The notes under the pieces are model-generated. The model did no database searches and was not told where the DNA came from. It saw only the letters and a list, made by a program, of their open reading frames with translations. This document shows positions 2,833 through 21,242 of a DNA stretch of 23,717 nt, in pieces. Each line of letters begins with the position of its first letter. The first letter of the stretch is position 1. A program made the position numbers and the translations under genes. The stretch is taken from contig CALGBY010000102.1 of assembly GCA_937886445.1 (NCBI GenBank), positions 1 to 23,717 of the forward strand. The letters are read 5' to 3'. Origin of the DNA: an uncultured Clostridia bacterium. Lineage in GTDB: Bacteria; Bacillota; Clostridia; Christensenellales; Aristaeellaceae.

Positions 2833-2861
2833 ACCGGGTTGCTCATTTGAAGGTGAATCTA

Positions 2862-3719
2862 TTGACAAGCTTTGCTGCGCGCGATCTGCGGCGCCGGAAA
2901 AAGATCAATTGGCAGAAAGTGCTGTTGATTACCACGTTTTCCGCGCTCCCCTTGTTCCTGCTGATCCTGTTTACCTACGTTCCCTTTATCAAAATGGTGA
3001 AATTCAGCTTCTATGATATGAGTTACACCAGAAACAGGGGCTTCGCATCGTTCAATAATTACCTGAAGATATTCACGAAAGAAGAATACGTGGATGCCAT
3101 GCTGCTGAGTCTGTACTATATGGCCGGCGCGGTCGTACAGCTGGCGCTTGCGTTGTTTTTCGCGACGCTTCTCACGTCCGGCATCAAGGGCAACGGGATT
3201 TTCAAGGGCATCCTGTTCTTCCCCTTCCTTGTGAACGGCATTGCCATCGGCTATATCTTCAAGTTCTTCTTCACCCGCGGCTTCGTGCTGGATACCGTGC
3301 TGCAAGCCTTGGGCTTCCCTCTGGAAAATCTGCCGTACTGGCTGCGCGACCAGAGCGTGAACAACTGGTCGCTGATGTTTACTTCGGTATGGAAATACTG
3401 CGGACAGAATATGGTTCTGTTCATCGGCGCGATCGCGTCCATCGATCCTTCCCTGTATGAAGCCGCCACCATTGACGGTGCCAACAAATGGCAGCAGTTC
3501 AAGGTCATCGTGTTGCCCGGTATCAAAACGGTGTTTATGCTGAATCTGATTCTGTCCATCACCGGCTCTCTTTCCGCCTTCGAACCCGCCTATGTTGTGG
3601 GCAGCATGGGTGCCAACGGAACGGCTACTTTCTTCATCAAAATCCATCAGATGGCGCATGTAAACAACAAGGTCGGCATACGCGGGACTGGCAAGCGGGT
3701 CCGTAAAGGGATAAGCTGA
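2862..3719 (+). CDS. CUT1 ABC sugar permease (MalF/UgpA type), apparently C-terminally truncated; possible pseudogene
   Basis: In frame with ORF 2727..3719. The start is set at TTG 2862, after GAAGGTGA. Five TM segments are visible, plus the EAA loop LYEAATIDGANKWQQFKVIVLPGIKT. After ...HVNNKVG, where a sixth TM helix is expected, the ORF ends in the basic tail IRGTGKRVRKGIS. Confidence 0.7.
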   Translation: MTSFAARDLRRRKKINWQKVLLITTFSALPLFLLILFTYVPFIKMVKFSFYDMSYTRNRGFASFNNYLKIFTKEEYVDAMLLSLYYMAGAVVQLALALFFATLLTSGIKGNGIFKGILFFPFLVNGIAIGYIFKFFFTRGFVLDTVLQALGFPLENLPYWLRDQSVNNWSLMFTSVWKYCGQNMVLFIGAIASIDPSLYEAATIDGANKWQQFKVIVLPGIKTVFMLNLILSITGSLSAFEPAYVVGSMGANGTATFFIKIHQMAHVNNKVGIRGTGKRVRKGIS

Positions 3720-3789
3720 CGGACGGCGGACTTCGCGCATAAAGTCCGCCGCCGGCATCGTGTACGTCCCGGGAACTTCCGGGAACGCG

Positions 3790-3823
3790 ATAAGACGGCT
3801 TCAAACGATGCCGTCTTATTTTA
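3790..3823 (+). terminator. Rho-independent terminator
   Basis: A perfect 10-bp stem pairs ATAAGACGGC (3790-3799) with GCCGTCTTAT (3810-3819), running into a T-tract (TTATTTT). Confidence 0.8.
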
Positions 3824-3833
3824 CCCGCGTCAG

Positions 3834-3902
3834 AGTTAATTACTTAAATATTAGTTTTGGTATTGACTTAAAAAACATAAAGTACTATAATCCTAATTAA
3901 CT
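3834..3902. promoter_or_regulatory. AT-rich inverted repeat bracketing promoter P2
   Basis: AGTTAATTA (3834-3842) and its exact reverse complement TAATTAACT (3894-3902) flank the -35 and -10 elements. The downstream arm starts 3 nt after the -10. An adjacent TTACTTAA box (3840-3847) resembles the box upstream of P1. Confidence 0.35.
3863..3891 (+). promoter_or_regulatory. Sigma-A type promoter P2: -35 TTGACT (3863-3868), 17-nt spacer, -10 TATAAT (3886-3891)
   Basis: A consensus -10 and a 5/6 match at -35 with ideal spacing. It lies just downstream of a strong terminator and about 100 nt upstream of ATG 3991, at the head of a long same-strand gene array. Confidence 0.7.
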
Positions 3903-3990
3903 GAACACAACAAAAAACGCAACAATCACATATAACCGTGGAAACAAACGCCGGCTGCGCCGGTGAATCGAATATCGGGAGGAACAGATC

Positions 3991-5041: not shown

Positions 5042-6511
5042 GTGAAAAACAGAAGGTTCCGCAAATTGCTTCACAGAATGACGGCGCTCACGCTGTGCTG
5101 TCTGCTGCTGCCCGTGTCTTCGCCGGGCACGGCAGAGGATGTGATCCGCCTCGAGGCGGAGGACGGCGTGACCTACGGGAACGTGCGGGCCCTTTCCAAC
5201 AGCCGCAGGGGCTGGGTCGAGGGCTTCAAGGACGACAATGACCGGGTGGAGCTGCCGCTCACAATCGCGGTGGGCGGGCTTTACGACATCACGGTGATCC
5301 TCGCCTCCGAGGGCGGTCATAAGGAAAATCCCCTGCTGCTGGACGGAGAGCGGGTCGCGACCTGCGCAGTCGACAGCAGCACCTATACCCGCGTCACCCT
5401 GTCCGGCATTTATCTTACGGAGGGCGAGCATACGCTGGGCATGGGCAAGAGCTGGGGCTGGGTCAAGGTGGATGCCTTTGAGATTGCGCCCTGCGCCGGT
5501 CTTTCCCCCGAGCTTTACGAGGTCTCCCGTATCCTCGCTGTCCCCAACCCCTCGCCGGAAGCGCAGCGGCTGTTTGACTGGATGTGCGACATCTACGGCA
5601 AAAAGATCATCACCGGCCAGAACTGCGACGGCGGCATGTACGGCATGGAGAATCAGGCCATCTGGCGGGCGACGGGCGGCTCCTATCCCGCGCTGCTGGG
5701 TCTGGACATGATTGACTACAGTCCCTCCCGCGTGGAGCGGGGTACTACGGGCAAGAGCGTGGATTACGCCATCGACTACTGGAACAAGGGCGGCATCGTC
5801 ACCTTCTGCTGGCACTGGAACGCGCCCTCCCCCTACCTCAAGGAGCCGTGGTACTCCGGCTTCTACACGGAGCATTCCACCATCAACCTCAAAAAAATCA
5901 TGAACGGTGAGGATAAGCAGGGCTACGATCTTCTGATGAAGGACATCGACGCCATCGCCTGTCAGCTCACCCGCCTGCGCGACGCGGGCGTGCCCGTCCT
6001 GTGGAGGCCCCTTCACGAGGCCAGCGGCGGCTGGTTCTGGTGGGGCGCGTCGGGCAAAGAGGCGTACAAGTGGCTGTGGGACCTGCTGTTTGACAAGCTG
6101 ACCAATGAGTACGGTCTCAACAACCTCATCTGGGTCTGGAACGGACAGAATCCCGCTTGGTATCCGGGCGACGAGACCGTGGACATCATCGGCGAGGATA
6201 TCTATCCCGGCGAGCGGGTCTACAATTCCCAGAGCGCGAAATTCCTCGAAGCGACAAAGTACACCCTCGCGAAGAAGATGATCATCCTGTCCGAAAACGG
6301 CTGCGTGCCCGATCCGGAGCTGATCTTCCGCGACGGCACGGTCTGGGGCAGCTACTGCACCTGGGGCGGAGACTTCGTGCTCAAAAACAAGAAGTTCAAT
6401 AATCCCTCCGAGCAGTACACCGAGGTGTGGATGCTCAAGAAAATGTACGAAGACGAGCGCAGCGTGACCCGCGCGGACATTCCCGATTTGAGGAGCGGGT
6501 CCGAAAATTAG
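5042..6511 (+). CDS. Secreted endo-beta-1,4-mannanase: CBM6/35-like module plus GH26 catalytic domain
   Basis: GTG start after GGGAGGG. An N-terminal hydrophobic signal sequence is present. The beta-sandwich-like module (nt ~5132-5488) contains LEAEDG and LTEGEHTLGM. GH26 hallmarks are WRPLHEASGGWFWWG (acid/base Glu context) and IILSENG (nucleophile Glu context). Confidence 0.9.
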   Translation: MKNRRFRKLLHRMTALTLCCLLLPVSSPGTAEDVIRLEAEDGVTYGNVRALSNSRRGWVEGFKDDNDRVELPLTIAVGGLYDITVILASEGGHKENPLLLDGERVATCAVDSSTYTRVTLSGIYLTEGEHTLGMGKSWGWVKVDAFEIAPCAGLSPELYEVSRILAVPNPSPEAQRLFDWMCDIYGKKIITGQNCDGGMYGMENQAIWRATGGSYPALLGLDMIDYSPSRVERGTTGKSVDYAIDYWNKGGIVTFCWHWNAPSPYLKEPWYSGFYTEHSTINLKKIMNGEDKQGYDLLMKDIDAIACQLTRLRDAGVPVLWRPLHEASGGWFWWGASGKEAYKWLWDLLFDKLTNEYGLNNLIWVWNGQNPAWYPGDETVDIIGEDIYPGERVYNSQSAKFLEATKYTLAKKMIILSENGCVPDPELIFRDGTVWGSYCTWGGDFVLKNKKFNNPSEQYTEVWMLKKMYEDERSVTRADIPDLRSGSEN

Positions 6512-6546
6512 CCCTTTTCATAATGAACGCAAGGAGTGAAGAAAGC

Positions 6547-9531
6547 ATGATAAGACGGATGAGTGTCCTGCTCGCTGTTGTGATCCTTCTGACATCGGCG
6601 TCCGCGCTGGCTGTCACGGACAAGTCCATCGGGCAGTACGAGGATCTGGTGAGCACCTATTCCATCGATGCGTCGATTCCCTCCTATGACGAATACCTGA
6701 GCGCCCGCGGTGAAAACCGCCCGGAAAAGGTCATCGTGCTCGAGGGCGCGTCCTGCGCACGCTATGAGGAAGAGGGCGTGACCTCGCCCGTTATCCTGAG
6801 TAATTACGAGGGCATGGCGGGAGACGCGCTCCTCACCGGCGAGGAAGCGCTGGCGGAGTGGGAGTTCACCGTGGAGGAAGCGGGCTTATACGGCATTTCG
6901 CTTCTGTACTATCCCTACGAAGGCAAGAACTCGGAGATCCAGCGCGCCTTCTTTATCGACGGATGTCTTCCTTACGACGAGCTTTCCGTGGTGTCGTTTA
7001 CCCGTGTGTGGAGAAACGACCTCGCGAAGGGACTGTCCCGCGTGACGGATGAAAACGGCGTGGAGACCGTTCTGTGGCGCAGGGACAATCAGGGCAATGA
7101 CCTCAAGCCCTCGCCCGCCGAAGCACCCGAATGGGTAGAGGTACCGCTTTATGACAGCAACGGCTATGTCACGGACGAGCTGGGGGTCTATCTTGAGGAG
7201 GGTACCCATACCCTTACGATGCTCTCCCTGCGCGAACCCATGCTGGTGCGCTCCATCACCCTCAAAAATACGGACAGGCCCCTGCCTTACGCGCAGGTGA
7301 AACCGGAGAACACTTCCTCCGCGAAGGGCATCTGCGTGCGCATTGAGGCCGAAGCCGCGCAGAAGACCTCCTCCCAGATGCTCTATCCCGTGCAGGAGCA
7401 GGGCTCGGCGCGGGTGTATCCCTCGTCCGCGCGGTACCTGCTCAACAACACCATCGGCGGAAACGCGTGGAAAAACGCGGGTCAGTGGATCGAGTGGGAG
7501 TTTTCCGTGCCCGAGGAGGGCGACTACTGCCTGAGCTTCTACGACAAGCAGAATTTCGTGCGCGGCATCGACGTGTACCGCAAGATCTATGTGGACGGAA
7601 AGGTACCCTTTACCGAGTATAGCGCCCTGCCCTTCGGCTACGGCGCCAGCTGGCGCATGGAGACCGCCGCGGACGAAAACGGCGAGCCCTACCGCGTACA
7701 CCTTGCCTCAGGGGAGCACACCCTGCGCATGGAGGTCGTGCTGGGCGACATGGCGGACATCATCAGCCGCGTGCAGCAGTGCGTGCTGCAATTAAACGCC
7801 ATCTACCGTCAGGTGCTCTACATCACCGGCGTGTCCCCGGACGAAAACCGCGACTATCAGATCGAGCGCTACCTGCCGGCACTGGAGCAGGAGCTCATCG
7901 ATGTGCAGAACGACCTGCGCGCCGCCATCGCCATACTGGAGAAAACGGCGGGTCACAAGAGCGACAAGCTCACCGTCCTCAAGACCATGGACGACCAGCT
8001 GAGCGAGCTCATCGAGGACCGCGAGCGCTTTACCGAGGTGCTTTCTTCCTATAAAACAAATGTGCGCGCCTGCGGCAACTGGATCACGCAGGTGCTGCCC
8101 CAGCCCCTGCAGATTGACCGCATCTATGTGCACACGCCCGATGTGAAGCCGGAAAAGGACGGCTCCTTCGGAAGCGGTCTTCTGCACGAGGCGGAGCGCT
8201 TGTATAACTCCTTTGTCATCGATTACAACCGTGTCGGCAACATCGCCGAGACGGACGGGGACGGTACGGTCATCACCCTGTGGATCGGCACCGGCCGCGA
8301 TCAGGCAAATGTGATCAAGTCCCTGATCGATGAGCACTTTACGCCCGAAACCGGCATCAATGTGAATGTGCAGCTGGTGGACATGAGCACGCTTCTGCGC
8401 GCCACCCTGTCCGGAGAAGGCCCCGATGTGGCCATTCAGGTATCCGCCACCGGCGGCATCGCGGGCTCGGTCATGAACACCGGCAACGATACGCCCGTCA
8501 ACTACGGCCTGCGCCACGCGGTCATGGATCTCACCGTCTTCCCGGATTTTGACGAGGTCGCCGCGCGTTTTGCGCCCAGCGCTCTCGTGCCCTTCTCCTT
8601 TAACGGCGCCTCCTACGCGCTGCCCGACACACAGACCTTCCCGATGATGTTCTACCGGAAGGACATCCTCGCGGAAATCGGTCTTGCCGTGCCCGAAACC
8701 TGGGACGATGTGAAGGTCGCCATGAGCGTGCTCAACAAAAATCAAATGGAGTTCGGCATGCTCCCGGGCGAGCAGACCTTCGCGATGCTGCTGTTCCAGG
8801 CGGGTGGCGCGTATTACAGCGAAAACGGAGACCGCTCGGCACTGGATTCCGACATCGCGGTCAATGTGTTCTGCCGCTACTGCGAATTCTATACCGATTA
8901 CAAACTGGACGCGGCTACCTCCGTGGAGGAGCGCTTCCGCACGGGCGAGTGCCCGCTCATCATCGCGGACTACACCACCTACAATAACCTGCAGGTATCT
9001 GCCCCCGATATCAAGGGTCTGTGGGACTTCACCCATGTGCCCGGCACCGTGCGCGAGGACGGCAGCGTGAATACCGCCACCGGCTGCTCGGGCCTTGCCG
9101 ACATCATCATGAGCGCCACGGAGGAACCGGAGGCCTGCTGGGAATTCCTCAAATGGTGGACGGATGCAGAGACTCAGACGCTCTACGGTCGCGAGATGGA
9201 ATCCCTGATGGGCTCCTCCGCCCGCGTCGCCACCGCCAACATGGAAGCGCTTTCCAAGCTGTCCTGGCCTATCAAGGACTATAAGGAACTGTCCGCCCGC
9301 TTCGACAGCATCGTGGGCATCCCTCAGGTGCCCGGCGGCTACTACAGCTGGCGCAACGTGAACAACGCGTTCTACGCCGTCACCACGGACAACTCCAGCA
9401 AGGTAAGAAGTGAATCTGGCAACACGCCCCGCGAGGAGCTGATGGACAAGATCTATTACATCAACGCCGAAATCGACTACAAGCGCGCCGAATTCGGCCT
9501 GCTGCTCTACTCGGAAGGAGAGGAGGAATAA
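6547..9531 (+). CDS. Giant extracellular solute-binding protein: two CBM6/35-like modules, a helical segment and a family-1 SBP domain
   Basis: In frame with ORF 6427..9531. The start is set at ATG 6547 after AAGGAG, giving the signal peptide MIRRMSVLLAVVILLTSASALA. Module 1 spans nt ~6727-7264 (LEEGTHTLTM). Module 2 spans nt ~7327-7750 (RIEAEAA and LASGEHTLRM). The predicted helical region spans nt ~7750-8107. The SBP-like region spans nt ~8260-9531 (VITLWIGTGRDQ, FNGASYALPDTQTFPMMFYRKDIL, PETWDDV). Two permease genes follow immediately. Confidence 0.8.
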   Translation: MIRRMSVLLAVVILLTSASALAVTDKSIGQYEDLVSTYSIDASIPSYDEYLSARGENRPEKVIVLEGASCARYEEEGVTSPVILSNYEGMAGDALLTGEEALAEWEFTVEEAGLYGISLLYYPYEGKNSEIQRAFFIDGCLPYDELSVVSFTRVWRNDLAKGLSRVTDENGVETVLWRRDNQGNDLKPSPAEAPEWVEVPLYDSNGYVTDELGVYLEEGTHTLTMLSLREPMLVRSITLKNTDRPLPYAQVKPENTSSAKGICVRIEAEAAQKTSSQMLYPVQEQGSARVYPSSARYLLNNTIGGNAWKNAGQWIEWEFSVPEEGDYCLSFYDKQNFVRGIDVYRKIYVDGKVPFTEYSALPFGYGASWRMETAADENGEPYRVHLASGEHTLRMEVVLGDMADIISRVQQCVLQLNAIYRQVLYITGVSPDENRDYQIERYLPALEQELIDVQNDLRAAIAILEKTAGHKSDKLTVLKTMDDQLSELIEDRERFTEVLSSYKTNVRACGNWITQVLPQPLQIDRIYVHTPDVKPEKDGSFGSGLLHEAERLYNSFVIDYNRVGNIAETDGDGTVITLWIGTGRDQANVIKSLIDEHFTPETGINVNVQLVDMSTLLRATLSGEGPDVAIQVSATGGIAGSVMNTGNDTPVNYGLRHAVMDLTVFPDFDEVAARFAPSALVPFSFNGASYALPDTQTFPMMFYRKDILAEIGLAVPETWDDVKVAMSVLNKNQMEFGMLPGEQTFAMLLFQAGGAYYSENGDRSALDSDIAVNVFCRYCEFYTDYKLDAATSVEERFRTGECPLIIADYTTYNNLQVSAPDIKGLWDFTHVPGTVREDGSVNTATGCSGLADIIMSATEEPEACWEFLKWWTDAETQTLYGREMESLMGSSARVATANMEALSKLSWPIKDYKELSARFDSIVGIPQVPGGYYSWRNVNNAFYAVTTDNSSKVRSESGNTPREELMDKIYYINAEIDYKRAEFGLLLYSEGEEE

Positions 9532-9532
9532 G

Positions 9533-10465
9533 ATGAACCGGACGGAAGCATGCCGCGCGCCCAAGCCACGCGAACTGACCCTGCGGCACGTCATCTGGAA
9601 AAACAGGGCGTCCTATCTGCTGATGGCTCCCTACTTCATTCTGTTTTTCCTGTTTACGGTCGTGCCGGTCATCATGTCCGTATACCTGTCCTTCACCTAT
9701 TTCAACATGCTGGAGCCGCCCTCCTTCGTGGGGTGGAGCAACTACATCAAGCTCCTTCTGGAGGACGATATCTTCATCATTTCACTACGCAACACGCTGA
9801 TCTTTGCCGTTGTGACGGGTCCGATCAGCTATCTGTTGTGCTTGCTGTTTGCGTGGATCATCAATGAGTTCAAGCCCCGCCTGCGCGCCGTGCTGACGCT
9901 GATCTTCTATGCGCCCTCCATCTGCGGCAACGCCTACATGATCTGGAACCTCATCCTGACCGGCGACCGCTACGGCTTTTTGAACGGCCTATTGCTGAAG
10001 CTGGACTTCATCAACGAGCCCATCCTCTGGATGCAGACGGAAAAATATGTGCTGCCCGTGCTGATCGTGGTGCAGCTGTGGCTGTCCCTCGGCACCGGCT
10101 TCCTCTCCTTTATCGCGGGTCTTCAGACCGTGGACAAGGGCATGTATGAAGCGGCGGCCATCGACGGCGTCAAAAACCGCTGGCAGGAGCTGTGGTATGT
10201 GACCCTGCCCGCCATGAAGCCGCAGCTGCTCTTCGGCGCGGTCATGCAGATCACGCAGTCCTTTGCCGTTGCCGATATCTCCATCAACCTCGCCGGAAAC
10301 CCCTCGGTCAACTACGCTGGCGCGACCATCGTGACGCACCTGTTGGACTACGGCTCCACACGCCTCGACCTCGGCTACGCGTCGGCCATCGCCACCATCC
10401 TGTTCCTGCTGATGGTCGGCACCAACAAGCTTGTTCAGAAGCTGCTGGGAAGGGTGGGTGAATAG
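9533..10465 (+). CDS. CUT1 ABC sugar permease, MalF/UgpA type (pair 1)
   Basis: The ATG lies 1 nt after the upstream stop, with RBS GGAGGAGGAA. Six TM segments are visible, plus the EAA loop MYEAAAIDGVKNRWQELWYVTLPAMKP. Confidence 0.9.
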   Translation: MNRTEACRAPKPRELTLRHVIWKNRASYLLMAPYFILFFLFTVVPVIMSVYLSFTYFNMLEPPSFVGWSNYIKLLLEDDIFIISLRNTLIFAVVTGPISYLLCLLFAWIINEFKPRLRAVLTLIFYAPSICGNAYMIWNLILTGDRYGFLNGLLLKLDFINEPILWMQTEKYVLPVLIVVQLWLSLGTGFLSFIAGLQTVDKGMYEAAAIDGVKNRWQELWYVTLPAMKPQLLFGAVMQITQSFAVADISINLAGNPSVNYAGATIVTHLLDYGSTRLDLGYASAIATILFLLMVGTNKLVQKLLGRVGE

Positions 10466-10466
10466 T

Positions 10467-11396
10467 ATGAATACCACCGTAAAAAACAAGCCGGTCGACA
10501 ACCGTCCCGCAAAAATCATCAAACTTGAAAAGAAACTGAAGCATAAGGAAGGCGGCAAAAAGCTGAACCGCTCCGTCGCCGGAAACACCCTGCTGTTCGT
10601 CCTCATGGGCATCTGCGGCGTGTTCATGGTGCTGCCTCTGGTGATGATCGTCAATAACGCATTGAAGCCCCTTGACGAAATCTACCAGTTCCCGCCCCGC
10701 ATCTTCGTGCGCAACCCCACGCTTTCAAACTTCACCGACCTCTTCGTGCTGCTCAACGAAAGCTGGGTGCCTTTCTCCCGCTACATCTTCAACACCATCA
10801 TCATCACCGTGGGCGGCATGGTGGGTCATGTGGTCGTGGCGTCCATGGCGGCTTACCCCCTTGCCAAGCACAAGTTCCCCGGCAAGGCGCTGCTGTTCTC
10901 CATGGTGGTGCTGTCCATGATGTTCTCCTGGACGGTCACGCAGATCCCCCAGTATCTCATCATTTCGTGGCTGGGCATCAACAATACCTACGCCGCCCTC
11001 ATCCTGCCCGCATGGGCGTCCGGAATGGGTCTGTACCTCATGAAGCAGTTCATGGAGCAGCTGCCCGACTCCCTCATGGAGAGCGCGCGCCTGCAGGGCG
11101 CGAACGAGTGGCAGATCTTCTGGCAGATCGTGATGCCCAATGTGCGTCCCGCGTGGCTCACGCTGGCCATCTTCCAGTTCCAGTCCATGTGGGGCAACAC
11201 CGGCGGCATGTTCCTGCGCAATGAGGAACTCAAGCCCCTGCAGTACGCCCTGTACCAGATCACCTCGGGCGGCGTTGCCCGCGCGGGCGCGGGCGCGGCG
11301 GTCAGCTTCATCATCGCCGCCATCCCGATTACATTCTTCCTCATCTGCCAGAGCTCCATTCTGGAAACCATGACCACCTCGGGCATGAAGGATTAA
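10467..11396 (+). CDS. CUT1 ABC sugar permease, MalG/UgpE type (pair 1)
   Basis: In frame with ORF 10431..11396. The start is set at ATG 10467, 1 nt after the upstream stop. EAA loop: LMESARLQGANEWQIFWQIVMPNVRP. Confidence 0.9.
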   Translation: MNTTVKNKPVDNRPAKIIKLEKKLKHKEGGKKLNRSVAGNTLLFVLMGICGVFMVLPLVMIVNNALKPLDEIYQFPPRIFVRNPTLSNFTDLFVLLNESWVPFSRYIFNTIIITVGGMVGHVVVASMAAYPLAKHKFPGKALLFSMVVLSMMFSWTVTQIPQYLIISWLGINNTYAALILPAWASGMGLYLMKQFMEQLPDSLMESARLQGANEWQIFWQIVMPNVRPAWLTLAIFQFQSMWGNTGGMFLRNEELKPLQYALYQITSGGVARAGAGAAVSFIIAAIPITFFLICQSSILETMTTSGMKD

Positions 11397-11408
11397 GGGG
11401 GGAAGCGT

Positions 11409-12887
11409 ATGAAGTGTAAGAAACTGCTCTGCCTGCTGCTCCTTGTGTGCCTGCTGCCTTCCTGCGCGCTGGCAAACGACACGCTGCCCTACGACTGCTA
11501 TAACTACGATTACTGGAACAATATCCTCTATACTCCGGCTCCCTATGTGCCGGACGGCAGCATTTCCGGCGATACACTCCTGTGGAACGAAAGTCCTTTG
11601 GGCGCGTTCCGCTCCCCGCAGGATCTGTGCGTATCCCCGGATGGGTCGGTCTACATCGCCGATACGGGCAACAACCGCGTGGTCGTCGTGGACAGCGACC
11701 TCAAAACCGTGCTGCGCGTCATCGACGGCTTTATGGCGGACGGCAATCGGGAGACCTTCTCCTCGCCCACGGGCGTGGCGGTCTCCCGCAAAGGTCAGCT
11801 GTATGTGGCCGACACCCAGAACCACCGCATCGTGGTGCTGGAACAAGACGGCTCCTTCGTGAAATATGTGGATAACCCCGTGAGCGAGGTGCTGGAGGAG
11901 GGCTATGTGTTCACGCCCCTCAAGGTGTCTGTCGACTACGCGGACCGCGTCTACTGCATCGCCCGCAACATGTTTCAGGGCATCATGGTGTTCACCGCGG
12001 AGGGCGACTTCACGGGCTTTTTCGGAACCATCGAGGTAAAGATCACCCTGTGGGAAAAGTTCTGGCGGAAAATATCCACCAAGAAGGAACGCTCCAAGCA
12101 GCTGCTGTTCATTCCCACCGAGTTTACCGGCATCGATGTGGACGAGGAGGGCTTCGTCTACGCATCCAACAAGGACACCGAGGGCGTGCAGGCCGTGCGC
12201 CGCCTGAACCCCAAGGGACAGGATGTCATCCGCAAGGGCATCAAGGAAAATCTTGGCGGAGACCTCGTATTCGGTACGCTGGGCACCTACGCGGGTCCCA
12301 GTCAGATCGTGGACGTGGTGTACCGCGACCACGGCATCTATTCGCTGCTGGACGCGCGCCGCGGCAGGATATTCACCTACGACCACGAGGGGAATTTTTT
12401 GTATATCTTCGGCGGCATCGGAACCCAGGAAGGCACCTTCCACACGCCCGCCGCCATCGAGCAACTGGGAAACCGTCTGCTGGTGCTGGATTCCCGTCAG
12501 GCGAACATCAGCATTTTCACAGAGACGGAGTACGGTTCCCTCATCAACCGCGCCGTGGCTCTGCGACACAGCGGCGATGAGACGCTGGCTGTGCCGCTGT
12601 GGAACGAGGTGCTCCGGCTGGATGAAAACAACGAGTTGGCCAACTCCGGCATCGGCAAAGCGTATCTTTCCGCGGGCGATAACGAAAAGGCCATGACTTA
12701 CCTGCGCCGCGGCATGAACCGTGCCTACTATTCAGTGGCGTTCAAGAGATGGCGCAATGAGGCGCTGCGCGACAACATCAGCTGGGTGCTGACCGGGCTC
12801 ATTGTCGTCATTGCGGTAGTCATCATAGTGAAAAAGATCGTTTTGCCCAAAATCGGAAAAAAGAGAAAAAGGGGGGAAGAGTCGTGA
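11409..12887 (+). CDS. Membrane-tethered NHL-repeat beta-propeller protein with a TPR-like segment and C-terminal TM anchor
   Basis: The signal peptide is MKCKKLLCLLLLVCLLPSCALA, with a possible LPSC lipobox. Six NHL-like units are visible, for example SPQDLCVSPDGSVYIADTGNNRVVVVD and SPTGVAVSRKGQLYVADTQNHRIVVLE. A helical TPR-like stretch (NSGIGKAYLSAGDNEKAMTYLRRG) follows. The C-terminal TM helix is VLTGLIVVIAVVIIV, followed by a KKRKRG-rich tail. Confidence 0.8.
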   Translation: MKCKKLLCLLLLVCLLPSCALANDTLPYDCYNYDYWNNILYTPAPYVPDGSISGDTLLWNESPLGAFRSPQDLCVSPDGSVYIADTGNNRVVVVDSDLKTVLRVIDGFMADGNRETFSSPTGVAVSRKGQLYVADTQNHRIVVLEQDGSFVKYVDNPVSEVLEEGYVFTPLKVSVDYADRVYCIARNMFQGIMVFTAEGDFTGFFGTIEVKITLWEKFWRKISTKKERSKQLLFIPTEFTGIDVDEEGFVYASNKDTEGVQAVRRLNPKGQDVIRKGIKENLGGDLVFGTLGTYAGPSQIVDVVYRDHGIYSLLDARRGRIFTYDHEGNFLYIFGGIGTQEGTFHTPAAIEQLGNRLLVLDSRQANISIFTETEYGSLINRAVALRHSGDETLAVPLWNEVLRLDENNELANSGIGKAYLSAGDNEKAMTYLRRGMNRAYYSVAFKRWRNEALRDNISWVLTGLIVVIAVVIIVKKIVLPKIGKKRKRGEES

Positions 12888-13516
12888 GCAAGGCATTCAG
12901 CAAGGAAAAATGGAAGTACCTGCTTTATACGGCAGGGCACCCCAATGACGGCTTTTACTGGATCCGTCATCAGGATCGAGGCAGCGTGCCCATCGCCGTG
13001 CTGCTGGTGATCCTCTACTCCGTGTGCTTCTCCATGAACCGCATTTACGCGGGCTTCGTGGTAAACGACATCAATCCCCGCTCGGTCAACTCCATCGCAG
13101 AGTTGGGAGGCGTGGCGATTTTGTTCATGGTGCTATGCGCCGGCAACTGGTCGGTCACCTGCCTCATGGAAGGCGAGGGACGCTTCAAGGATATCGTCAT
13201 CGCCATCGGTTATTCTCTTCTGCCAATGATCATCGGCACGGTGTTGGCAACCTTCATTTCGCAGCTCGTTGCCGAAAACGAGGAAGCATTTTACTCCATC
13301 GTCATGGGCATCGGCACGGCGTATACGGTCATCATGATGCTCACAGGAATCATGCAGATACACAATTATACTCTGGGAAAGACGCTTGTAACGCTCCTGC
13401 TCACGGTGATCGCCGTGTTCATTATCATATTCCTTGCGCTGCTCATCGTGAACTTTTTGACTCAGGTCTACAGCTTCCTGAGAAACATCTACATCGAGCT
13501 TGTATTCCGCTTTTAA
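12884..13516 (+). CDS. Yip1-domain-like integral membrane protein (5 TM)
   Basis: The GTG start overlaps the upstream stop (GTGA, 12884-12887). It is 210 aa, with a short cytoplasmic N-terminus followed by five hydrophobic helices. This topology and size are typical of bacterial YIP1-family proteins. The assignment rests on topology and recollection, not on an HMM. Confidence 0.65.
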   Translation: MSKAFSKEKWKYLLYTAGHPNDGFYWIRHQDRGSVPIAVLLVILYSVCFSMNRIYAGFVVNDINPRSVNSIAELGGVAILFMVLCAGNWSVTCLMEGEGRFKDIVIAIGYSLLPMIIGTVLATFISQLVAENEEAFYSIVMGIGTAYTVIMMLTGIMQIHNYTLGKTLVTLLLTVIAVFIIIFLALLIVNFLTQVYSFLRNIYIELVFRF

Positions 13517-13530
13517 GGAGGGACGGAAAT

Positions 13531-16128
13531 ATGGCGAAAACGGAGAACGCGGCCGGTCTGCCGCCTCGTGTAAAGCGGATTTTGTGGATGATGTTGGTCG
13601 CCGCGATGATCCTCGTGGTCGTACTGATCGTCAGATATGTGTTCCGCTACATGAAGTACGATGCCTATAAAGAGATCATCCAGCCGCCCGTATCCTACGA
13701 TGAAGGGAGCGCTTTCACACCGCTCAAGGATGAGCTGAAGGCTGTTAAGGGCTTTGTTCCCGCAGCGGAAAACGAGAAGATGATCCTATATTTCAATCAG
13801 AAAACGGCGGAGGTTGCTCTGTATGACAAGGAAAGCGGCATCACCGTCTACTCCAATCCGCAAGACGCGGACAAGGACCCCGTGGCGCGCGCTGGCAATC
13901 TGGAGAATTTGAAAAGCCAGTTCATCCTCTCTTATCTGGACGGCAATGCCAAGGAGGGAACAGCGTGGAATTCCTACGCCAAGTCCGTCGAGAGCGGTCA
14001 GATGTCCTGTGAGAAAATCGAAAACGGCGTGCGCGTCATCTACAATCTGTCCAATGAAAAGCTGCTTCTGGTGCCAGACGTGCTTACGCAGGAATGGTAC
14101 GAGATGTTCATTAACGCCGGCAAAAAGCAGGCGAAAAAATCCTACGTTCTGAACGACGAAATGGGCCTGTACGAACTCAAGACGCAGGGTGTCACAGCCC
14201 GCAATCGTCAGCAGATTGACGCGGACGCTCGTGAGGCGGGCTTCACCATGGCTGATTACGAGCAGATGCAGGCCTTGCTCCCGCCCGCCGAGGACGCGGA
14301 GGGGCAGACGGAGACTCTTTCCTTTACCGTGACGCTGGACTGGATCCTGACGCCTGACGGAATCGAGGTTACCATTCCTTATGAGGGGTTGGGCGAGTTC
14401 GGAAACGGTAAGATCCGCGCCATTCAGCTCCTGCCCATGTTCGGCGCGGCGGGCGCGGATGAGACGGGCGAAATAGTGATTCCGGAGGGCAGCGGCGCGC
14501 TGATCCGTTTCAATAACGGAAAGTCCGCTTCCGCGCAGTACAACAAGAACATCTACGATCTGGACCCCGTGGACAGCGATCTGACTGCGCTCCAGAACCA
14601 GCAGACCGTGCGCCTGCCCATCATTGGCATCTGCCGGGAAAATTACTCACTGCTCGCCACCTGTGAGCGGGGCGCGTCGCTCGCGGCTATCGTCGCCGAT
14701 GTCGCGGGGCGCAACAACAGTTACAATTACGCTTACTTCACTTTCTCTCTGCGCCGCACCGATACCCTGACCATCTCTGGTGAAAGCGTGATCGTGGCGG
14801 AAGAAGACCTGTATCCCGTGGATCTCAGGGTGCACTATGAGATTATCCCAAAGGATGCGGGCGGCTACGTAGACATTGCCCGCACCTACCGCGAAAGCCT
14901 GATCGAATCGGGTGCGCTCGAGCGCGAGACGAACGCTGCGGGGGACATCCCCTTCTACTGTGACGTCATCGGTGGCGTCAAGGAAACGGCGCACATCGCT
15001 GGTATTCAGTATCTGCGTCTGCTGCCCATGACCACCTTCGCCGAAGCGGGGGAGATGATGGATGAGCTCGGGAAGATGGGCATCACGAACCGAAGAATGA
15101 ATTTGCAGGGCTGGATGAACGGCGGATACTACCATGATCCGGTCCGAAAAACCAAGGTGATCGGCAAGCTGGGCGGCGAAAAAGGACTCGCCTTACTGAT
15201 CGAGAAAGAAAATCTTTCGGGCGGCAAAGTCTACCCCGACGCCGCCATACAGCAGGTATCCGACATCGCCAAAGGGTTTACGGCCGGCGGCGAGGCATCC
15301 CGCTACTACGCGCAGGGTTACGTGGTCAATCTTGCCCGCGTGAGCCCGGTGTCCCTGCGCCGCACGGACACAATGGGCTACAAGGAACTGGGCTATAAAC
15401 TGCTGTCTCCCAAGTTCCTGCCGCGCTATGCGAAGGCGCTTTCGGAAGAAGCGGAGGAGCTGCAACTTACAGCCCTGTCATTGCGTGACCTCGGGAACGA
15501 TCTGCACGCGGACAAGCGCCGCACCGAGGTCATCAACCGCGAGTACGCGCTGGATCTGGTGAAGGATGCCTTTCAAACCCTTTCCGCGAACGGGCGGGAC
15601 ATTCTCGTTACGGGCGGCAATGACTACTGCTTCCCCTATGTATCGGATGTCATCGGAGCGCCGCTCAGCGCCACGTCCTATCCTATCCTCGATGAGCAGA
15701 TTCCACTGTGGGAAATGATTGTGCACGGCTCCGTTTCCTACGCCGGAAATCCCATCAACATGACCCAGAGCGAAGACAGGCGCGTGGACCTGCTGCGATT
15801 CATCGACTACGGCGCGTCCGTGCGCTACACCTTCACGTGGCGGGATGCCGCGGAAATGAAGTACACCGGACTCAACAGCAGCTACGCCACTACCTTCTCT
15901 TCGTGGAAGGAGCAGGCAGCGGAGGATTATGCCTTTGTGAACGGCGCACTTAAATACGTTTCCGGCGCGGCTATGATAAATCACGCGCGGCTTTCGGACA
16001 CTTTGACGCGCAGCGATTACTCGAACGGAATCAGCATTTATGTAAACACGGGCGATGCGTTCGCTTCGGCGGACGGATACACGGTAGCGCCCTATTCCTA
16101 TCTGGTCACGGGAGGTGAGGCGCAGTGA
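13531..16128 (+). CDS. Type-II membrane-anchored large ectoprotein of unknown function (possibly DUF5696-like or glycosidase-like)
   Basis: In frame with ORF 13024..16128. The start is set at ATG 13531 after AAGGAGGGA, because the upstream part of the ORF overlaps the Yip1-like gene in another frame. The N-terminal TM is ILWMMLVAAMILVVVLIV. The N-half is beta-rich. The C-half alternates beta/alpha-like segments (FYCDVIGG, LQGWMNGGYYH, LSLRDLGNDLHAD, ILVTGGNDY, IPLWEMIVHG). I could not assign any characterised family motif. Confidence 0.7.
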   Translation: MAKTENAAGLPPRVKRILWMMLVAAMILVVVLIVRYVFRYMKYDAYKEIIQPPVSYDEGSAFTPLKDELKAVKGFVPAAENEKMILYFNQKTAEVALYDKESGITVYSNPQDADKDPVARAGNLENLKSQFILSYLDGNAKEGTAWNSYAKSVESGQMSCEKIENGVRVIYNLSNEKLLLVPDVLTQEWYEMFINAGKKQAKKSYVLNDEMGLYELKTQGVTARNRQQIDADAREAGFTMADYEQMQALLPPAEDAEGQTETLSFTVTLDWILTPDGIEVTIPYEGLGEFGNGKIRAIQLLPMFGAAGADETGEIVIPEGSGALIRFNNGKSASAQYNKNIYDLDPVDSDLTALQNQQTVRLPIIGICRENYSLLATCERGASLAAIVADVAGRNNSYNYAYFTFSLRRTDTLTISGESVIVAEEDLYPVDLRVHYEIIPKDAGGYVDIARTYRESLIESGALERETNAAGDIPFYCDVIGGVKETAHIAGIQYLRLLPMTTFAEAGEMMDELGKMGITNRRMNLQGWMNGGYYHDPVRKTKVIGKLGGEKGLALLIEKENLSGGKVYPDAAIQQVSDIAKGFTAGGEASRYYAQGYVVNLARVSPVSLRRTDTMGYKELGYKLLSPKFLPRYAKALSEEAEELQLTALSLRDLGNDLHADKRRTEVINREYALDLVKDAFQTLSANGRDILVTGGNDYCFPYVSDVIGAPLSATSYPILDEQIPLWEMIVHGSVSYAGNPINMTQSEDRRVDLLRFIDYGASVRYTFTWRDAAEMKYTGLNSSYATTFSSWKEQAAEDYAFVNGALKYVSGAAMINHARLSDTLTRSDYSNGISIYVNTGDAFASADGYTVAPYSYLVTGGEAQ

Positions 16129-18055: not shown

Positions 18056-19789
18056 ATGAGAAAATTCCTTTCCTGGCTGGTGATTGCCGCTCTGGCAGTC
18101 ACTATGTGCGCGTTTGCCGCAGCGGAAACGGAAGCAGCCGGCAAGATCGACTTTGCCGACGGCACTTTCGCTTTCCTGGGCCTTTCCATGGCCAAGGGCA
18201 ACGCGGACGCATCCACCGAGCTTTCCGTCGTTGATTATCAGGGCGGCAAAGCGCTGAAGGTCCTGTCCAAGGGCAAGGTCCCCTATGTTGCCTTCAACAT
18301 CGAGGGTCTGCTGGGCGACAAGCTGTCTGATGTGCGCGCCATCAGCGTCACCTTCGGTATCGACGAGAAGGGCCCCAACGGCAAGTTCTTTGCCGCTTCC
18401 GGCGCCGTCTACACCTACACCGGCGAAGAGAACGCGGAAACCAAGCATGAGTGGAGCGTTTATCTGGCCAAGAAGAACCCCCGCACCATCGTGACCGCCC
18501 TGAAGGACGGCGAGGTGTTCGTGCCCGGCATGGGCAACACCCTCGTGATCTCCAAGGAGACCGATAACTGCCAGACCGCCACCGGCACGCCCCTTGCGCT
18601 GTATCTGACGGACATCGCGTTCCTTGACGCCGAAGGCAACGCTCTCCCCGTGGACCTCACCGCGGAGTATGTGAGCGCCGACACCGGCCGCGACACCTCC
18701 AACCTGTTTGCTCTCAGCAACACCGTCGATTTCGCGGGCTTCACCACCACCGGCGGCGGTTGGGGACAGAGCGGCTTTGACTGGGATGCTGCCGCCCTTG
18801 AGGCGCTGGTACCCGGCACCGCCATCGAGATCGAGTACGAGTCCGAGGACGGCTCCATGTGGGTCGTGTTCCCCGACGCCGCGGCCGGCTGGAGCCGCAT
18901 CGCGCAGGATGCCGCATACATCAACGGCAGCAAGAACATTGCGCAGATCACCTACGAGCAGATCGCCGAGAAACTGGGCGAAGACAAGACTGCCTGGGGC
19001 GGACGCCTCCAGTGCGAAGCCAAGTCCAACTGGACCGTCTTCTCCGTGAAGGTCGGTACCTGCGCTCATAACCTCACCCTCGCGAATGCCGTCGAGTTCC
19101 CCGGCTTTGAGGCCTCCGCGGGCGGCTGGAGCCAGAGCGGCTTCAACTGGGACGAGGCAGCCCTTGCGGCACTGGTTCCCGGCACCGCCATCGAAGTGAA
19201 CTTTGAGTCCGAAGACGGCTCCATGTGGGTCGTGTTCCCCGACGCGGCAGCCGGCTGGAGCCGCATCGCACAGGGCGAAGCTGCCATTCAGGGCGGTAAG
19301 GCCTACATCACCTACGAGCAGATCGCCGAAAAACTGGGCGAGGACAAGAGCGCCTGGGGCGGACGCCTCCAGTGCGAAGCCAAGTCCAACTGGACCGTCT
19401 ACGGCGTCACCATCGGCAAGCTCATTGAGCTTCCCGCCGTCAACAACATCGTGGAGTTCGCGGGCTTCGAGGCCTCCGCGGGCGGCTGGAGCCAGAGCGG
19501 CTTTGACTGGAACACCGCGGTGCTGGATGCGCTCAATCCCGGTAGTGCCCTCATCATTACCTTTGAATCTGAAGACAACTCCATGTGGGCCGTGTTCCCC
19601 GATGCAGCGGCCGGCTGGAGCCGTATCGCGCAGGATGAAGCCATCATCAGCGGCGGCAAAGCCTACATCACCTACGAGCAGATCGCCGCGAAGGTCGGCG
19701 AAGACAAGGCCGCTTGGGGCGGACGCCTCCAGTGTGAAGCCAAATCCGCTTGGACCGTGTACGGCGTAGCCGTCGGCCAGGTGAAGTAA
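18056..19789 (+). CDS. Secreted non-catalytic protein: N-terminal beta-sandwich-like domain plus three tandem ~120-aa modules (putative glycan-binding)
   Basis: RBS AAAGGAGG. The signal peptide is MRKFLSWLVIAALAVTMCAFAAA. The N-terminal domain of ~190 aa looks like a CBM. Three repeats follow, each containing GGW.QSGF.W, ESED.SMW.VFPDAAAGWSRIAQ, ITYEQIA and WGGRLQCEAKS.WTV. No LPXTG, SLH, dockerin or TM anchor is present. Confidence 0.8.
   Translation: MRKFLSWLVIAALAVTMCAFAAAETEAAGKIDFADGTFAFLGLSMAKGNADASTELSVVDYQGGKALKVLSKGKVPYVAFNIEGLLGDKLSDVRAISVTFGIDEKGPNGKFFAASGAVYTYTGEENAETKHEWSVYLAKKNPRTIVTALKDGEVFVPGMGNTLVISKETDNCQTATGTPLALYLTDIAFLDAEGNALPVDLTAEYVSADTGRDTSNLFALSNTVDFAGFTTTGGGWGQSGFDWDAAALEALVPGTAIEIEYESEDGSMWVVFPDAAAGWSRIAQDAAYINGSKNIAQITYEQIAEKLGEDKTAWGGRLQCEAKSNWTVFSVKVGTCAHNLTLANAVEFPGFEASAGGWSQSGFNWDEAALAALVPGTAIEVNFESEDGSMWVVFPDAAAGWSRIAQGEAAIQGGKAYITYEQIAEKLGEDKSAWGGRLQCEAKSNWTVYGVTIGKLIELPAVNNIVEFAGFEASAGGWSQSGFDWNTAVLDALNPGSALIITFESEDNSMWAVFPDAAAGWSRIAQDEAIISGGKAYITYEQIAAKVGEDKAAWGGRLQCEAKSAWTVYGVAVGQVK
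18713..19786 (+). repeat. Three in-frame tandem coding repeats (periods 366 and 360 nt)
   Basis: The units span about 18713-19078, 19079-19438 and 19439-19786. The GAC(GGC/AAC)TCCATGTGGG landmark recurs at 18848, 19214 and 19574. Units 1 and 2 share long identical runs, for example CCTGGGGCGGACGCCTCCAGTGCGAAGCCAAGTCCAACTGGACCGTCT. Confidence 0.9.
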
Positions 19790-19868
19790 TAAAGGGCCTT
19801 TCTATATGACAGCAGCGCCGCCCCGCGCGACGCACAAGGAACAATTCGATTCTAAGGAGGATCATTCA

Positions 19869-21242
19869 ATGAAACGTTTTGCTGCATTGTTGCTGGCTCT
19901 CATCATGGTGCTTTCCATGGCTGCCGGCGTAGCCGCGGCTGAAGAATCCCGCCATCTGACCTATGCTCTGTGGTGGGACCTGTACTACGATTTCGACGAT
20001 GAGGGATGGGAAGCCAGTCCCTCCGCCACCGGCAAGGACTCCGAGATCATGCGCTTTGATAACGTGAAGAACATCGAGAACACCTACGGAGTTACCTACG
20101 AGTTTGTCAATGCCACATGGGAAGGCATTAAGGACTCCATCAATAACTCCATTCTGGCCGGTGAGCCCGACTTTGACATGTACATGGTCGACCTTATGGC
20201 CTTCGGCGTACCCGCCGTTATGAATGGTCTGGCCACCGATCTGCGCAACGTGCTGGATGCAGATGATCCCTTCCTCTCTCACGAGGACCCCATCCTGGAC
20301 TACATTGAGCTGCCCAACGGCGCCGTGTCCCTGATTTTCCCCAAGGGTGCCGAGGACGCCGTGTCTTCCACCAACCCTCTGGCTTTCAACTTGCAGATGA
20401 TCGAGGAAGCCAATCTGGAAGACCCCCGCGATCTGTACGAGCGCGGCGAGTGGACTTGGGACAAGTTCCTTGAGTACTGCCGCGTGCTGACCCGTGACAA
20501 CGACGGTGACGGAGTCATCGACGTGTACGGCTACGGCGCATGGATCGGCGACGCTCTGCCCGCCTGGTATATGTCCAACGGCACCTTCATGGCCGCTACT
20601 CCCGAAGAGAACCTCACTTCTCCCGAGATTGGCGAGACGCTCTCTTTCCTGCAGAATCTGTACTTGACCGAACAGGTCGCATATCCTATCCCCGAAGAGA
20701 ACGGCTGGGATGTCTGCCGCTACCTGTACAGAGACAAGAAGGTTGCCTTCACCACTACCGCCGTATGGATCATGGCCAACTACGACGACTATAACTGGGA
20801 CGGACTGGCTGAGACCACTCTGGACTTCGACATGGTGTTCGTACCCTATCCCATTGGCCCCAGCGGTAACCAGGATACCAACAACACCAAGATCGCCAGC
20901 GGCAACTACTGGATGTTGCCCGCGGGCGTTCAGGATCCCAAGCTGGTGTTCGACGTGTTCCGCGCCTATCAGAACTGGTATCAGGACGATATCGAGCTGA
21001 GAGACGATCCCGAGGAACTCGAATGGTGGTACACTGCGACCTCTGACAAGCTCGACATCCAGAATTGGAACTTTTCCATTCTGGAGCTGCTGGGCTCCAA
21101 GGTCATGGTCGACTTCTACCACGTATTCTCTGATGATCTGCCCATGCTCAACTTCCTGAATGGCGAATACACCCCCGCCCAGTTCCAGGAGACCTACCGT
21201 CAGACCGTGCAGGACGCGCTGGATCAGATTTTCGGCGGATGA
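19869..21242 (+). CDS. Family-1 extracellular solute-binding protein (SBP 2)
   Basis: In frame with ORF 19806..21242. The start is set at ATG 19869 after TAAGGAGGA. The signal peptide is MKRFAALLLALIMVLSMAAGVAAA. It is 457 aa, W/Y/D-rich and SBP-like (ILAGEPDFDMYMV, WTWDKFLEYCRVLTRDNDGDGVIDVYG). Confidence 0.8.
   Translation: MKRFAALLLALIMVLSMAAGVAAAEESRHLTYALWWDLYYDFDDEGWEASPSATGKDSEIMRFDNVKNIENTYGVTYEFVNATWEGIKDSINNSILAGEPDFDMYMVDLMAFGVPAVMNGLATDLRNVLDADDPFLSHEDPILDYIELPNGAVSLIFPKGAEDAVSSTNPLAFNLQMIEEANLEDPRDLYERGEWTWDKFLEYCRVLTRDNDGDGVIDVYGYGAWIGDALPAWYMSNGTFMAATPEENLTSPEIGETLSFLQNLYLTEQVAYPIPEENGWDVCRYLYRDKKVAFTTTAVWIMANYDDYNWDGLAETTLDFDMVFVPYPIGPSGNQDTNNTKIASGNYWMLPAGVQDPKLVFDVFRAYQNWYQDDIELRDDPEELEWWYTATSDKLDIQNWNFSILELLGSKVMVDFYHVFSDDLPMLNFLNGEYTPAQFQETYRQTVQDALDQIFGG

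Follow-up and report, generated by a model that had tools for sequence, protein, structure and literature searches.

Positions 6547–9531 (forward strand) of a 23,717-nt stretch of DNA from an uncultured Clostridia bacterium (contig CALGBY010000102.1, positions 1–23,717, called the window below) encode a single secreted protein. It consists of a signal peptide of the signal peptidase I type, two homologous β-sandwich modules, a four-helix bundle, a connector, and a complete solute-binding domain of the kind used by CUT1 ATP-binding cassette (ABC) importers. The gene for this large solute-binding protein (the big SBP) opens a strictly conserved cassette, in which it is followed on the same strand by two permeases, an NHL or NHL/TPR protein, a Yip1-family membrane protein, a DUF5696 protein, and two further permeases (genes at 6547–17997). 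The cassette of the window sits in a β-mannan locus, as indicated by genes for glycoside hydrolase (GH) families GH26 and GH130 and for an epimerase. Sequence comparisons and structure models suggest that the big SBP could be the receptor subunit of a multi-protein import machine at the cell surface, in which the pair of N-terminal modules would do autonomous binding and the helix bundle would serve as an adaptor; we consider the case for and against this reading to be about evenly balanced.

A Complete CUT1 Solute-Binding Protein with a Long N-Terminal Region

The open reading frame (ORF) begins with ATG at 6547, ends with TAA at 9529–9531, contains no internal stop, and encodes 994 amino acids. 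A longer ORF with a GTG start at 6427 would run into the end of the GH26 gene and is unnecessary. The initial annotation of this DNA, made from the sequence alone, had described one protein about twice the usual size of an SBP, and the uninterrupted ORF with its ribosome-binding site bears this out. It had also argued against a split gene or a true start far downstream, with which the conservation of full-length homologues agrees. If the gene model were artefactual, the true SBP would start downstream, and the first 570 codons would be a separate gene or non-coding read-through. Nothing was found in favour of such a reading, the probability of which is close to nil: homologues are collinear down to ~30% identity, and the existence of thousands of full-length homologues of ~1,000 amino acids, in which the N-terminal part is conserved about as well as the SBP part, excludes a split gene. 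Together with the uninterrupted ORF, the ribosome-binding site, and the confidently predicted N-terminal folds, this collinearity rules an artefact out.

The only Pfam matches in the 994-residue protein are SBP_bac_1 and SBP_bac_8 (residues 590–880, E ~ 1e-16), with scores of 59.2 and 59.6 bits against gathering cut-offs of 26 and 27, and residues 1–570 have no Pfam match. A scan with NCBIfam gave sub-threshold SBP matches and nothing else. The nearest solved relatives of the C-terminal part are all sugar SBPs of CUT1 importers, with Lin1841 at the top (5ysb, E = 3.8e-13), and a Foldseek search of the PDB with the C-terminal part of the model also retrieves sugar SBPs. Both marks of a CUT1 SBP, a secretion signal and two adjoining genes for MalF/MalG-type permeases (9533–11396), are present. 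A lipoprotein anchor, which is typical of SBPs in monoderm bacteria but does not strictly define them, is absent, as the signal peptide has no Cys. By domain content and neighbourhood, the big SBP is thus a CUT1 SBP, for which binding and delivery of an oligosaccharide are predicted.

Two β-Sandwich Modules Related to CBM35 and CBM6

The two modules of the N-terminal region are recognisable as homologues of one another by BLASTP (E = 6e-8) and by hhalign (probability 98.2%, E = 4.8e-14). A first AlphaFold2 model of the full-length protein, built with 43 close homologues, predicts a β-sandwich for both, with a predicted local distance difference test (pLDDT) mostly between 80 and 95. In this model the N-terminal domains are good and the SBP part is poor (pLDDT 30–50), for which reason the geometry between domains was left unused. 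Against the PDB, Foldseek matches the N-terminal part to the carbohydrate-binding module (CBM) of family CBM6 of an agarase (2cdp, E ~ 5e-6, target-normalised TM-score of 0.6–0.7), and further to CBM6E (8j3x) and to the CBM35-bearing enzymes 4qaw, 6f2p, and 5x7o. Family alignments of the two modules were also compared, profile against profile, with a CBM35 alignment made from the CBM35 of the neighbouring GH26 protein and 67 orthologues. Hhalign gives a probability of 90% (E = 1.6e-6) for module 1 and of 94.5% (E = 8.1e-8) for module 2. When 49 diverse family members were scanned individually with Pfam, weak matches to Golvesin_C appeared in 32 and to CBM_35 in 16. These span 30–50 residues, fall in either module, and lie mostly below the gathering score; the 28-bit cut-off of CBM_35 is reached by one relative.

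Hence, the fold superposes on that of CBM35 and CBM6 and remote homology is detectable, but the threshold of the family hidden Markov models (HMMs) is not reached. The two CBM6/35-type modules of the initial annotation therefore stand as a matter of fold, on the agreement of AlphaFold2, the Foldseek match to 2cdp, and hhalign, but not as Pfam domains, as no CBM family matches the window protein. The modules are best described as remote relatives of the CBM35/CBM6 fold that fall outside these families by the HMM criterion, with putative sugar binding. They share with the CBM35 and CBM6 of glycoside hydrolases (the CBM35 of GH26, 2cdp, the CBM35 of Xyn30D in 4qaw) the sandwich itself and a core motif, G.Y.l...y ... 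vdG ... G.HtL. They differ from them in being carried by a transport receptor rather than an enzyme, in having long family-specific insertions, and in remaining under the Pfam threshold. An insertion of ~40 residues in module 1 bears a conserved DNxGNxLRPxQxExPxW motif. In module 2, a loop with the motif KSxxTLYPxxDRSSPxTxP...LNTIGG (residues 278–304, positions 7378–7458) is among the best-conserved stretches of the family, yet has a pLDDT below 50; it may become ordered only upon binding of a ligand or partner.

A Compact Helix Bundle and a Connector

The helical segment was modelled alone (residues 398–575, 73 diverse sequences), with a mean pLDDT of 86 and values of 95–98 across the bundle. 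The four helices, of 18–29 residues each, cover residues 399–427, 446–468, 473–496, and 499–516, and an ordered loop of 18 residues follows helix 1. No motif of the N-terminal region is better conserved than LNxxYRxIxxITGxxPDxYRDY (residues 416–437), which spans the end of this helix and the loop. D432, Y437, and P444 are invariant among the 73 sequences. Foldseek matches of the bundle to the PDB are generic four-helix bundles, all with E > 0.1, and as a result no functional analogue can be named. A helical region at 7750–8107 (residues 402–521), ahead of a complete SBP, had been correctly recognized in the initial annotation, whereas a heptad stalk, one of the two roles considered there, did not hold. 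There is no single long helix or pair of helices with continuous heptads, and a coiled-coil stalk is ruled out by the compact, confidently modelled bundle. On this model, the four helices pack compactly and present a specific conserved surface.

A Large Family of Fixed Architecture and Its Stand-Alone Paralogues

Relatives of the big SBP are numerous and share one fixed architecture. Among the candidates scored in a search with the full-length protein, over 1,770 are detectably related, and the 120 best have 65–100% identity and, with one exception, 963–1,060 amino acids. An exact look-up of the window protein matched no recorded contig. Patterns derived from it alone gave, in a collection that represents each species by a single genome, at least 582 confirmed relatives, mostly in metagenome-assembled genomes (MAGs) of rumen and gut Clostridia; the closest among the matches listed has 81% identity (Christensenella sp. 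UBA2853). The N-terminal 570 residues alone, searched exhaustively against 1.84 billion representatives of clusters at 50% identity, retrieved 1,919 clusters, 852 of them at E < 1e-30, with identities down to ~28%. Among the 150 best of these matches, lengths are mostly 930–1,100 amino acids, and about 30 are shorter. The hosts are Clostridia, Paenibacillus, Bacillaceae, and Dictyoglomus. When a profile of distant members is used, the proteins found come from Paenibacillus, Halalkalibacter, Neobacillus, Alkalihalobacillus, Caldicellulosiruptoraceae, Limnochordia, and Dictyoglomus. Cultured carriers include P. harenae (WP_051250713.1), N. bataviensis LMG 21833 (WP_007087232.1), Alkalihalobacillus trypoxylicola (WP_061947448.1), and D. 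thermophilum (WP_149123336.1). Everywhere the family is annotated as "extracellular solute-binding protein" or similar, and nothing more. The one exception in length among the 120 best relatives is P0100, a homologue of 1,467 residues from a Logan assembly in which the CBM35-GH26 protein is fused in frame to the big SBP. Either the two neighbouring genes have fused naturally, or the assembly or a frameshift has introduced an error.

Four paralogues (P0125, P0127, P0128, and P0157) are membrane-anchored proteins of ~570 residues that correspond to the N-terminal region only. Their genes adjoin one for a LacI-type regulator or a GH31 enzyme, with no cassette around. When only positions with a family conservation of 85% or more are counted, 68–84% are kept in module 1 and 77–88% in module 2, but only 21–64% in the helix bundle; the bundle motif is degenerate and the connector absent. 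The conservation of sandwich positions outside the cassette indicates that the pair of β-sandwiches is an autonomous unit. By these alignments, the PDxYRDY surface of the bundle and the connector are specific to the SBP-fused form that is borne by cassettes.

A Strictly Conserved Cassette

The surveys of loci cover the best-matching 80 loci per scan and are not a census. In genomes, 80 loci were fetched with the big SBP as seed; 65 of them reach at least 7 kb downstream, and all 65 have the full set of genes in the same order. On metagenome contigs found with a profile of DUF5696 (28–70% identity to the window protein), a big SBP with its N-terminal region lies upstream in 45 of 45 informative cases. 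The same core is found in all six loci of distant relatives (31–40% identity) that were inspected singly, namely those of Paenibacillus harenae, Dictyoglomus thermophilum, a member of Caldicellulosiruptoraceae, Neobacillus bataviensis, and two MAGs. This settles decisively how often the big SBP co-occurs with the trio of genes at 11409–16128, a question raised by the initial annotation: it does so in 100% of the informative loci. A separate SBP of normal size (SBP2 in the window) usually lies at one edge of the cassette. The gaps between cassette genes are tiny or negative in the window, where stop and start codons overlap further downstream; the spacing between the big SBP and the first permease is 1 nt there and 13–43 nt in the distant loci. 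The window has no ATPase gene, and none is among the genes listed in the six cassettes inspected singly.

The NHL/TPR and Yip1 proteins are encoded by separate, overlapping genes in the window (11409–13516) and by one protein of ~700 residues in four of the six distant loci. Such a Rosetta-stone fusion suggests that the two act together. Conservation differs markedly among the components. Over seven distant cassettes, mean identity is highest for permease pair 1 (53%), followed by the SBP domain of the big SBP (41%), permease pair 2 (39–40%), the N-terminal region of the big SBP (34%), DUF5696 (28%), and SBP2 (27%), the last value coming from partial alignments. An alignment of 73 sequences gives a similar conservation per domain. 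This contrast points to the big SBP and permease pair 1 as a conserved core, and to SBP2 and DUF5696 as variable and possibly substrate-specific components.

Anchoring is also distinctive. Of the 345 full-length members of the family, just 10 show anything like a lipobox. In P. harenae, N. bataviensis, and one MAG (loci L081, L084, and L085), SBP2 has a classic lipobox and the big SBP an AxA signal peptide.

The genes that flank the cassette vary. They are GH26, GH130, and an epimerase in the window and its close relatives, a GH5 cellulase with CBM_X2 in Dictyoglomus and Caldicellulosiruptoraceae, GH125 and GH76 in P. harenae, and GH2, GH123, and BNR in N. bataviensis; one MAG has no carbohydrate-active enzyme. 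The GH26 gene lies directly upstream of the big SBP in 63 of 68 informative close loci and is absent in distant ones. Hence, the CBM35-GH26 protein is locus-specific cargo outside the universal cassette. The N-terminal region of the big SBP, at 27–58% identity, is common to the cassettes beside GH5 cellulases, GH76/GH125, or GH2/GH123.

Possible Roles of the Big SBP

In the reading that we favour, the big SBP would serve, outside the cell, as the dedicated receptor of a surface import machine made of several proteins that the cassette encodes. Its SBP domain would pass oligosaccharide to permease pair 1. The tandem sandwich pair would be an autonomous binding unit that most likely grips glycan chains and thereby keeps substrate that is long or polymeric at the complex; binding of a conserved surface partner is less likely. 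The bundle and connector would form a rigid adaptor that links the sandwich unit to the SBP domain and to the cassette proteins, among which the NHL propeller with TPR and the Yip1 protein look like interaction scaffolds. As the receptor is generally not lipid-anchored, its retention at the cell surface would have to come from these interactions.

Several observations weigh against this reading. Pfam finds no CBM_35 or CBM_6 in the window protein even at E ≤ 1, and the CBM_35 and Golvesin_C matches in the family are short and at or under threshold. The sandwiches are conserved despite different flanking enzymes, so that a common partner or ligand fits better than the polysaccharide of the locus. 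The high identity of the SBP domain (41%) and permease pair 1 (53%), compared with SBP2 (27%) and DUF5696 (28%), suggests that the big SBP may not be the substrate-specific receptor. Physical association with NHL, Yip1, and DUF5696 is suggested by gene order. Finally, SBP2 of the window likewise lacks a lipobox, which makes the contrast in anchoring uninformative in this genome and leaves the argument to L081, L084, and L085.

The initial annotation had proposed polymer tethering at the entrance of the transporter, with the helical segment as a stalk or a docking element. In the mannan-specific form of this proposal, both modules would be CBMs that hold polymeric mannan there, and the helical segment would be a stalk. 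The CBM35/CBM6-type fold with its remote homology is compatible with this, as is the position of the gene in a β-mannan locus with CBM35-GH26, GH130, and an epimerase, most close relatives also having GH26 directly upstream. The fold has stood up to analysis; the specificity for mannan has not, since the same N-terminal region occurs beside GH5 cellulases, GH76/GH125, and GH2/GH123, and the conserved module residues are common to those loci and to the paralogues beside GH31 or a LacI-type regulator. This conservation across cassettes with unrelated enzymes is the strongest argument against a CBM role specific to the substrate of the locus, and the mannan-specific role was dropped as the primary reading for that reason. 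The helix model also speaks against a stalk, showing a tight bundle that bears an invariant loop and not an extended coiled coil. The proposal as a whole appears improbable.

The same conservation whatever the flanking enzymes would be expected if the N-terminal region were purely an assembly module that binds no carbohydrate and uses its sandwiches to dock a non-lipidated receptor onto NHL/TPR-Yip1, DUF5696, or both. NHL, Yip1, and DUF5696 are strictly co-inherited with the big SBP, whichever side the survey started from, NHL and TPR domains typically act as scaffolds for interactions between proteins, and the big SBP has no lipid anchor where neighbouring SBPs possess one. The low confidence of the conserved loop 278–304 in the model also fits a segment that orders upon binding. 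However, the cassette-free paralogues keep most conserved sandwich positions, which argues for a function independent of the cassette; this is the strongest counterargument, and it leaves pure docking rather unlikely, although less so than a mannan tether. Another way to retain a secreted receptor would be for the CBM35-like pair to bind a secondary cell-wall polymer, as the CBM35 of the Amycolatopsis exo-glucosaminidase CsxA reportedly does. The fold, the lack of a lipobox, and a conservation independent of locus substrate would all suit such wall anchoring. Yet the envelopes of the hosts (Clostridia, Paenibacillus, Dictyoglomus) differ greatly, and wall binding would be redundant as an anchor in the stand-alone paralogues, which are already membrane-anchored; we regard it as very improbable.

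If the big SBP is the receptor of such a machine, it may mark a widespread and so far unrecognised type of ABC-based "utilisome" in Bacillota and Dictyoglomota. A non-lipidated CBM-like receptor, an NHL/TPR-Yip1 scaffold, an anchored GH129-like protein, and two pairs of translocators would then work as one complex, with SBP2, DUF5696, and the flanking enzymes setting the substrate and the big SBP and permease pair 1 as the common engine. This broader proposal is tentative, and we rate it somewhat below even.

Comparison with Known Systems

Like the CUT1 SBPs Lin1841 (5ysb), CpMnBP1 (4r9g), and RiMnBP, the big SBP has a complete SBP_bac_1/8 domain in its C-terminal 420 residues, and its gene directly precedes two BPD_transp_1 permease genes. 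It differs from ordinary CUT1 SBPs in its 570 additional N-terminal residues, in usually having no lipoprotein anchor, and in the constant company of NHL, Yip1, DUF5696, and a second permease pair. Its sequence match to the manno-oligosaccharide binder CpMnBP1 is weak (E = 3e-4). The β-mannan system of Roseburia intestinalis has the same locus logic as the window, with GH26 outside, ABC import, and GH130 and epimerase inside, but uses an ordinary SBP, RiMnBP, which binds manno-oligosaccharides (PMC6385246).

Three other kinds of system offer partial parallels. SusE, SusF, and other surface glycan-binding proteins of SusCD utilisomes are lipoproteins of diderm Bacteroidota that work with a TonB-dependent transporter. 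Functionally they offer the nearest parallel to the big SBP, an analogy only, namely tandem CBM-like sandwiches at the mouth of an importer in polysaccharide utilisation loci with surface enzymes. The modules of the big SBP are instead fused to the SBP of an ABC transporter, in mostly monoderm hosts, and no sequence relationship is expected. In the ABC importers OpuA and GlnPQ, extra or fused substrate-binding domains occur and the SBP is fused to the permease. They share with the cassette a departure from the rule of one free SBP, the stoichiometry of the receptor being tied to the translocator, whereas in the cassette it is the SBP that carries additional, non-SBP domains, next to permeases of ordinary size. 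YknW is a Yip1-family accessory protein of the YknWXYZ ABC system of Bacillus subtilis and may serve, by analogy, as a precedent for the cassette Yip1 as an assembly factor of an ABC transporter; YknWXYZ differs in being of exporter type and without an SBP, NHL, or DUF5696 component.

A full-text literature search for DUF5696 or PF18952 gave no paper, and none describing the big-SBP family or the cassette was found by title and abstract. SBPs with CBMs go unmentioned in a 2026 review of glycoside transporters, and the N-terminal region is covered by neither a solved structure nor a Pfam family. The cassette as a whole might, with the scales tipped slightly the other way, represent an importer of a new kind. 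In the usual picture, an ABC importer of a Gram-positive gut or soil bacterium comprises a single lipoprotein SBP and two permeases; if the reading proposed here is true, the cassette adds a recurrent, modular, and far more elaborate design. It ranges over hundreds of species, including abundant Lachnospiraceae and Oscillospiraceae of rumen and gut as well as Paenibacillus, and is plugged into loci for β-mannan, α-mannan, β-glucan, and other glycans. It would also give a context relevant to function, with cultured hosts known, to three orphans (the 570-residue N-terminal region, DUF5696, and bacterial NHL-Yip1 proteins), and would sharpen the prediction of fibre-degrading capacity from metagenomes, where the cassette genes are now labelled generically.

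Other Cassette Genes and the Remainder of the Window

The positions of the domains of the big SBP, of the genes around it, and of the loci used for comparison are collected in Table 1. PDB matches of the NHL/TPR protein are NHL propellers, including the sensor domain of PknD. The DUF5696 protein has no match in the PDB by phmmer, but a profile of ten sequences matches the GH129 α-N-acetylgalactosaminidase NagBb (5wzq, E = 2.5e-7) over ~140 residues that do not include the GH129 catalytic residues, and, weakly, the GH129 3,6-anhydro-D-galactosidase 5opq. DUF5696 thus appears remotely GH129-like. The triple-CBM65 gene is kept behind permease pair 2 in most close gut and rumen loci that reach so far. 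CBM65 is a family that binds β-glucan and xyloglucan, and yet it occurs here within a β-mannan locus.

Table 1. Features of the big SBP, its genomic neighbourhood, and the comparison loci (positions refer to the window unless a locus is named)
Feature	Position	Strand	Evidence or remark
Ribosome-binding site AAGGAG	6531..6536	+	10 nt 5′ of ATG 6547; read in sequence
Signal peptide, residues 1–22 (MIRRMSVLLAVVILLTSASALA)	6547..6612	+	AxA-type signal peptidase I site, without lipobox Cys
N-terminal linker, residues 23–59	6613..6723	+	Two short helices; conserved Y47/Y50 (SYxxYL) motif
β-sandwich module 1, residues ~60–245	6724..7281	+	CBM35/CBM6-like; AlphaFold2, hhalign, Foldseek
β-sandwich module 2, residues ~262–401	7330..7749	+	CBM35/CBM6-like, begins IEAEA; AlphaFold2, hhalign, Foldseek
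Four-helix bundle, residues ~399–516	7750..8106	+	Separate AlphaFold2 model, pLDDT 95–98
Connector, residues 521–572	8107..8262	+	Conserved strand QPLxIDYI and helix with SFxxDY; leads into first SBP strand
CUT1-type solute-binding domain, residues 573–994, and stop codon	8263..9531	+	Pfam, PDB relatives, Foldseek
Secreted CBM35-GH26 protein (β-mannanase family)	5042..6511	+	Pfam; immediately upstream of big SBP
Permease pair 1	9533–10465 and 10431/10467–11396	+	Pfam BPD_transp_1; begins 1 nt past big-SBP stop
NHL β-propeller and TPR protein	11409..12887	+	Pfam NHL 1.6e-19, TPR; signal peptide, C-terminal transmembrane helix
Yip1-family polytopic membrane protein	12884..13516	+	Pfam Yip1 3.2e-15; start overlaps NHL stop
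DUF5696 protein	13531..16128	+	Pfam DUF5696 3e-178; N-terminal transmembrane anchor
Permease pair 2	16125–17045 and 17059–17997	+	Pfam BPD_transp_1; position kept in all loci
Secreted protein with three CBM65 modules	18056..19789	+	Pfam CBM65_1 4.6e-64, three stretches
Normal-size SBP (SBP2)	19806..21242	+	Pfam SBP_bac_1; likely start ATG 19869 (MKRFAALLL...)
Stand-alone paralogue loci	L167 647–2368; L168 10001–11767; L169 10001–11713		Outside cassette
NHL-Yip1 fusions	L081 14721–16847; L082 5606–7672; L083 14723–16810; L086 5387–7525		P. harenae, Dictyoglomus, Caldicellulosiruptoraceae, one MAG

Behind SBP2, the region 21392–23717 contains a gene of the N-acylglucosamine 2-epimerase family (Pfam GlcNAc_2-epim), which by context probably encodes a mannobiose/cellobiose 2-epimerase, and then a second GH130 phosphorylase. 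With epimerase and GH130, the usual path of manno-oligosaccharides through epimerase and phosphorylase inside the cell is complete. Ahead of the first GH130 gene lies a sigma-70-like promoter close to consensus (TTGACT-17-TATAAT, 3863–3891), and behind SBP2 a terminator-like hairpin (21334–21347). Together they suggest one transcription unit of ~17 kb and 12 genes; such sites are no more frequent than in shuffled background, so that this is only a hint. Matching public sequencing runs are DNA metagenomes only, with at most 20% of words, and include no RNA run.

The region 2074–3990 looks like a decayed classical ABC transporter. It contains a 236-residue SBP-like ORF with its own signal peptide that matches just the C-terminal part of SBP_bac_8, a lone permease gene (2727–3719), and then, ahead of GH130, ~270 nt with stops where a second permease is expected. 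A group II intron occupies 113–1943, with Rfam domains D1–D4 at 113–427 and D5/D6 at 1873–1943, and an intact reverse-transcriptase/maturase ORF at 365–1909.

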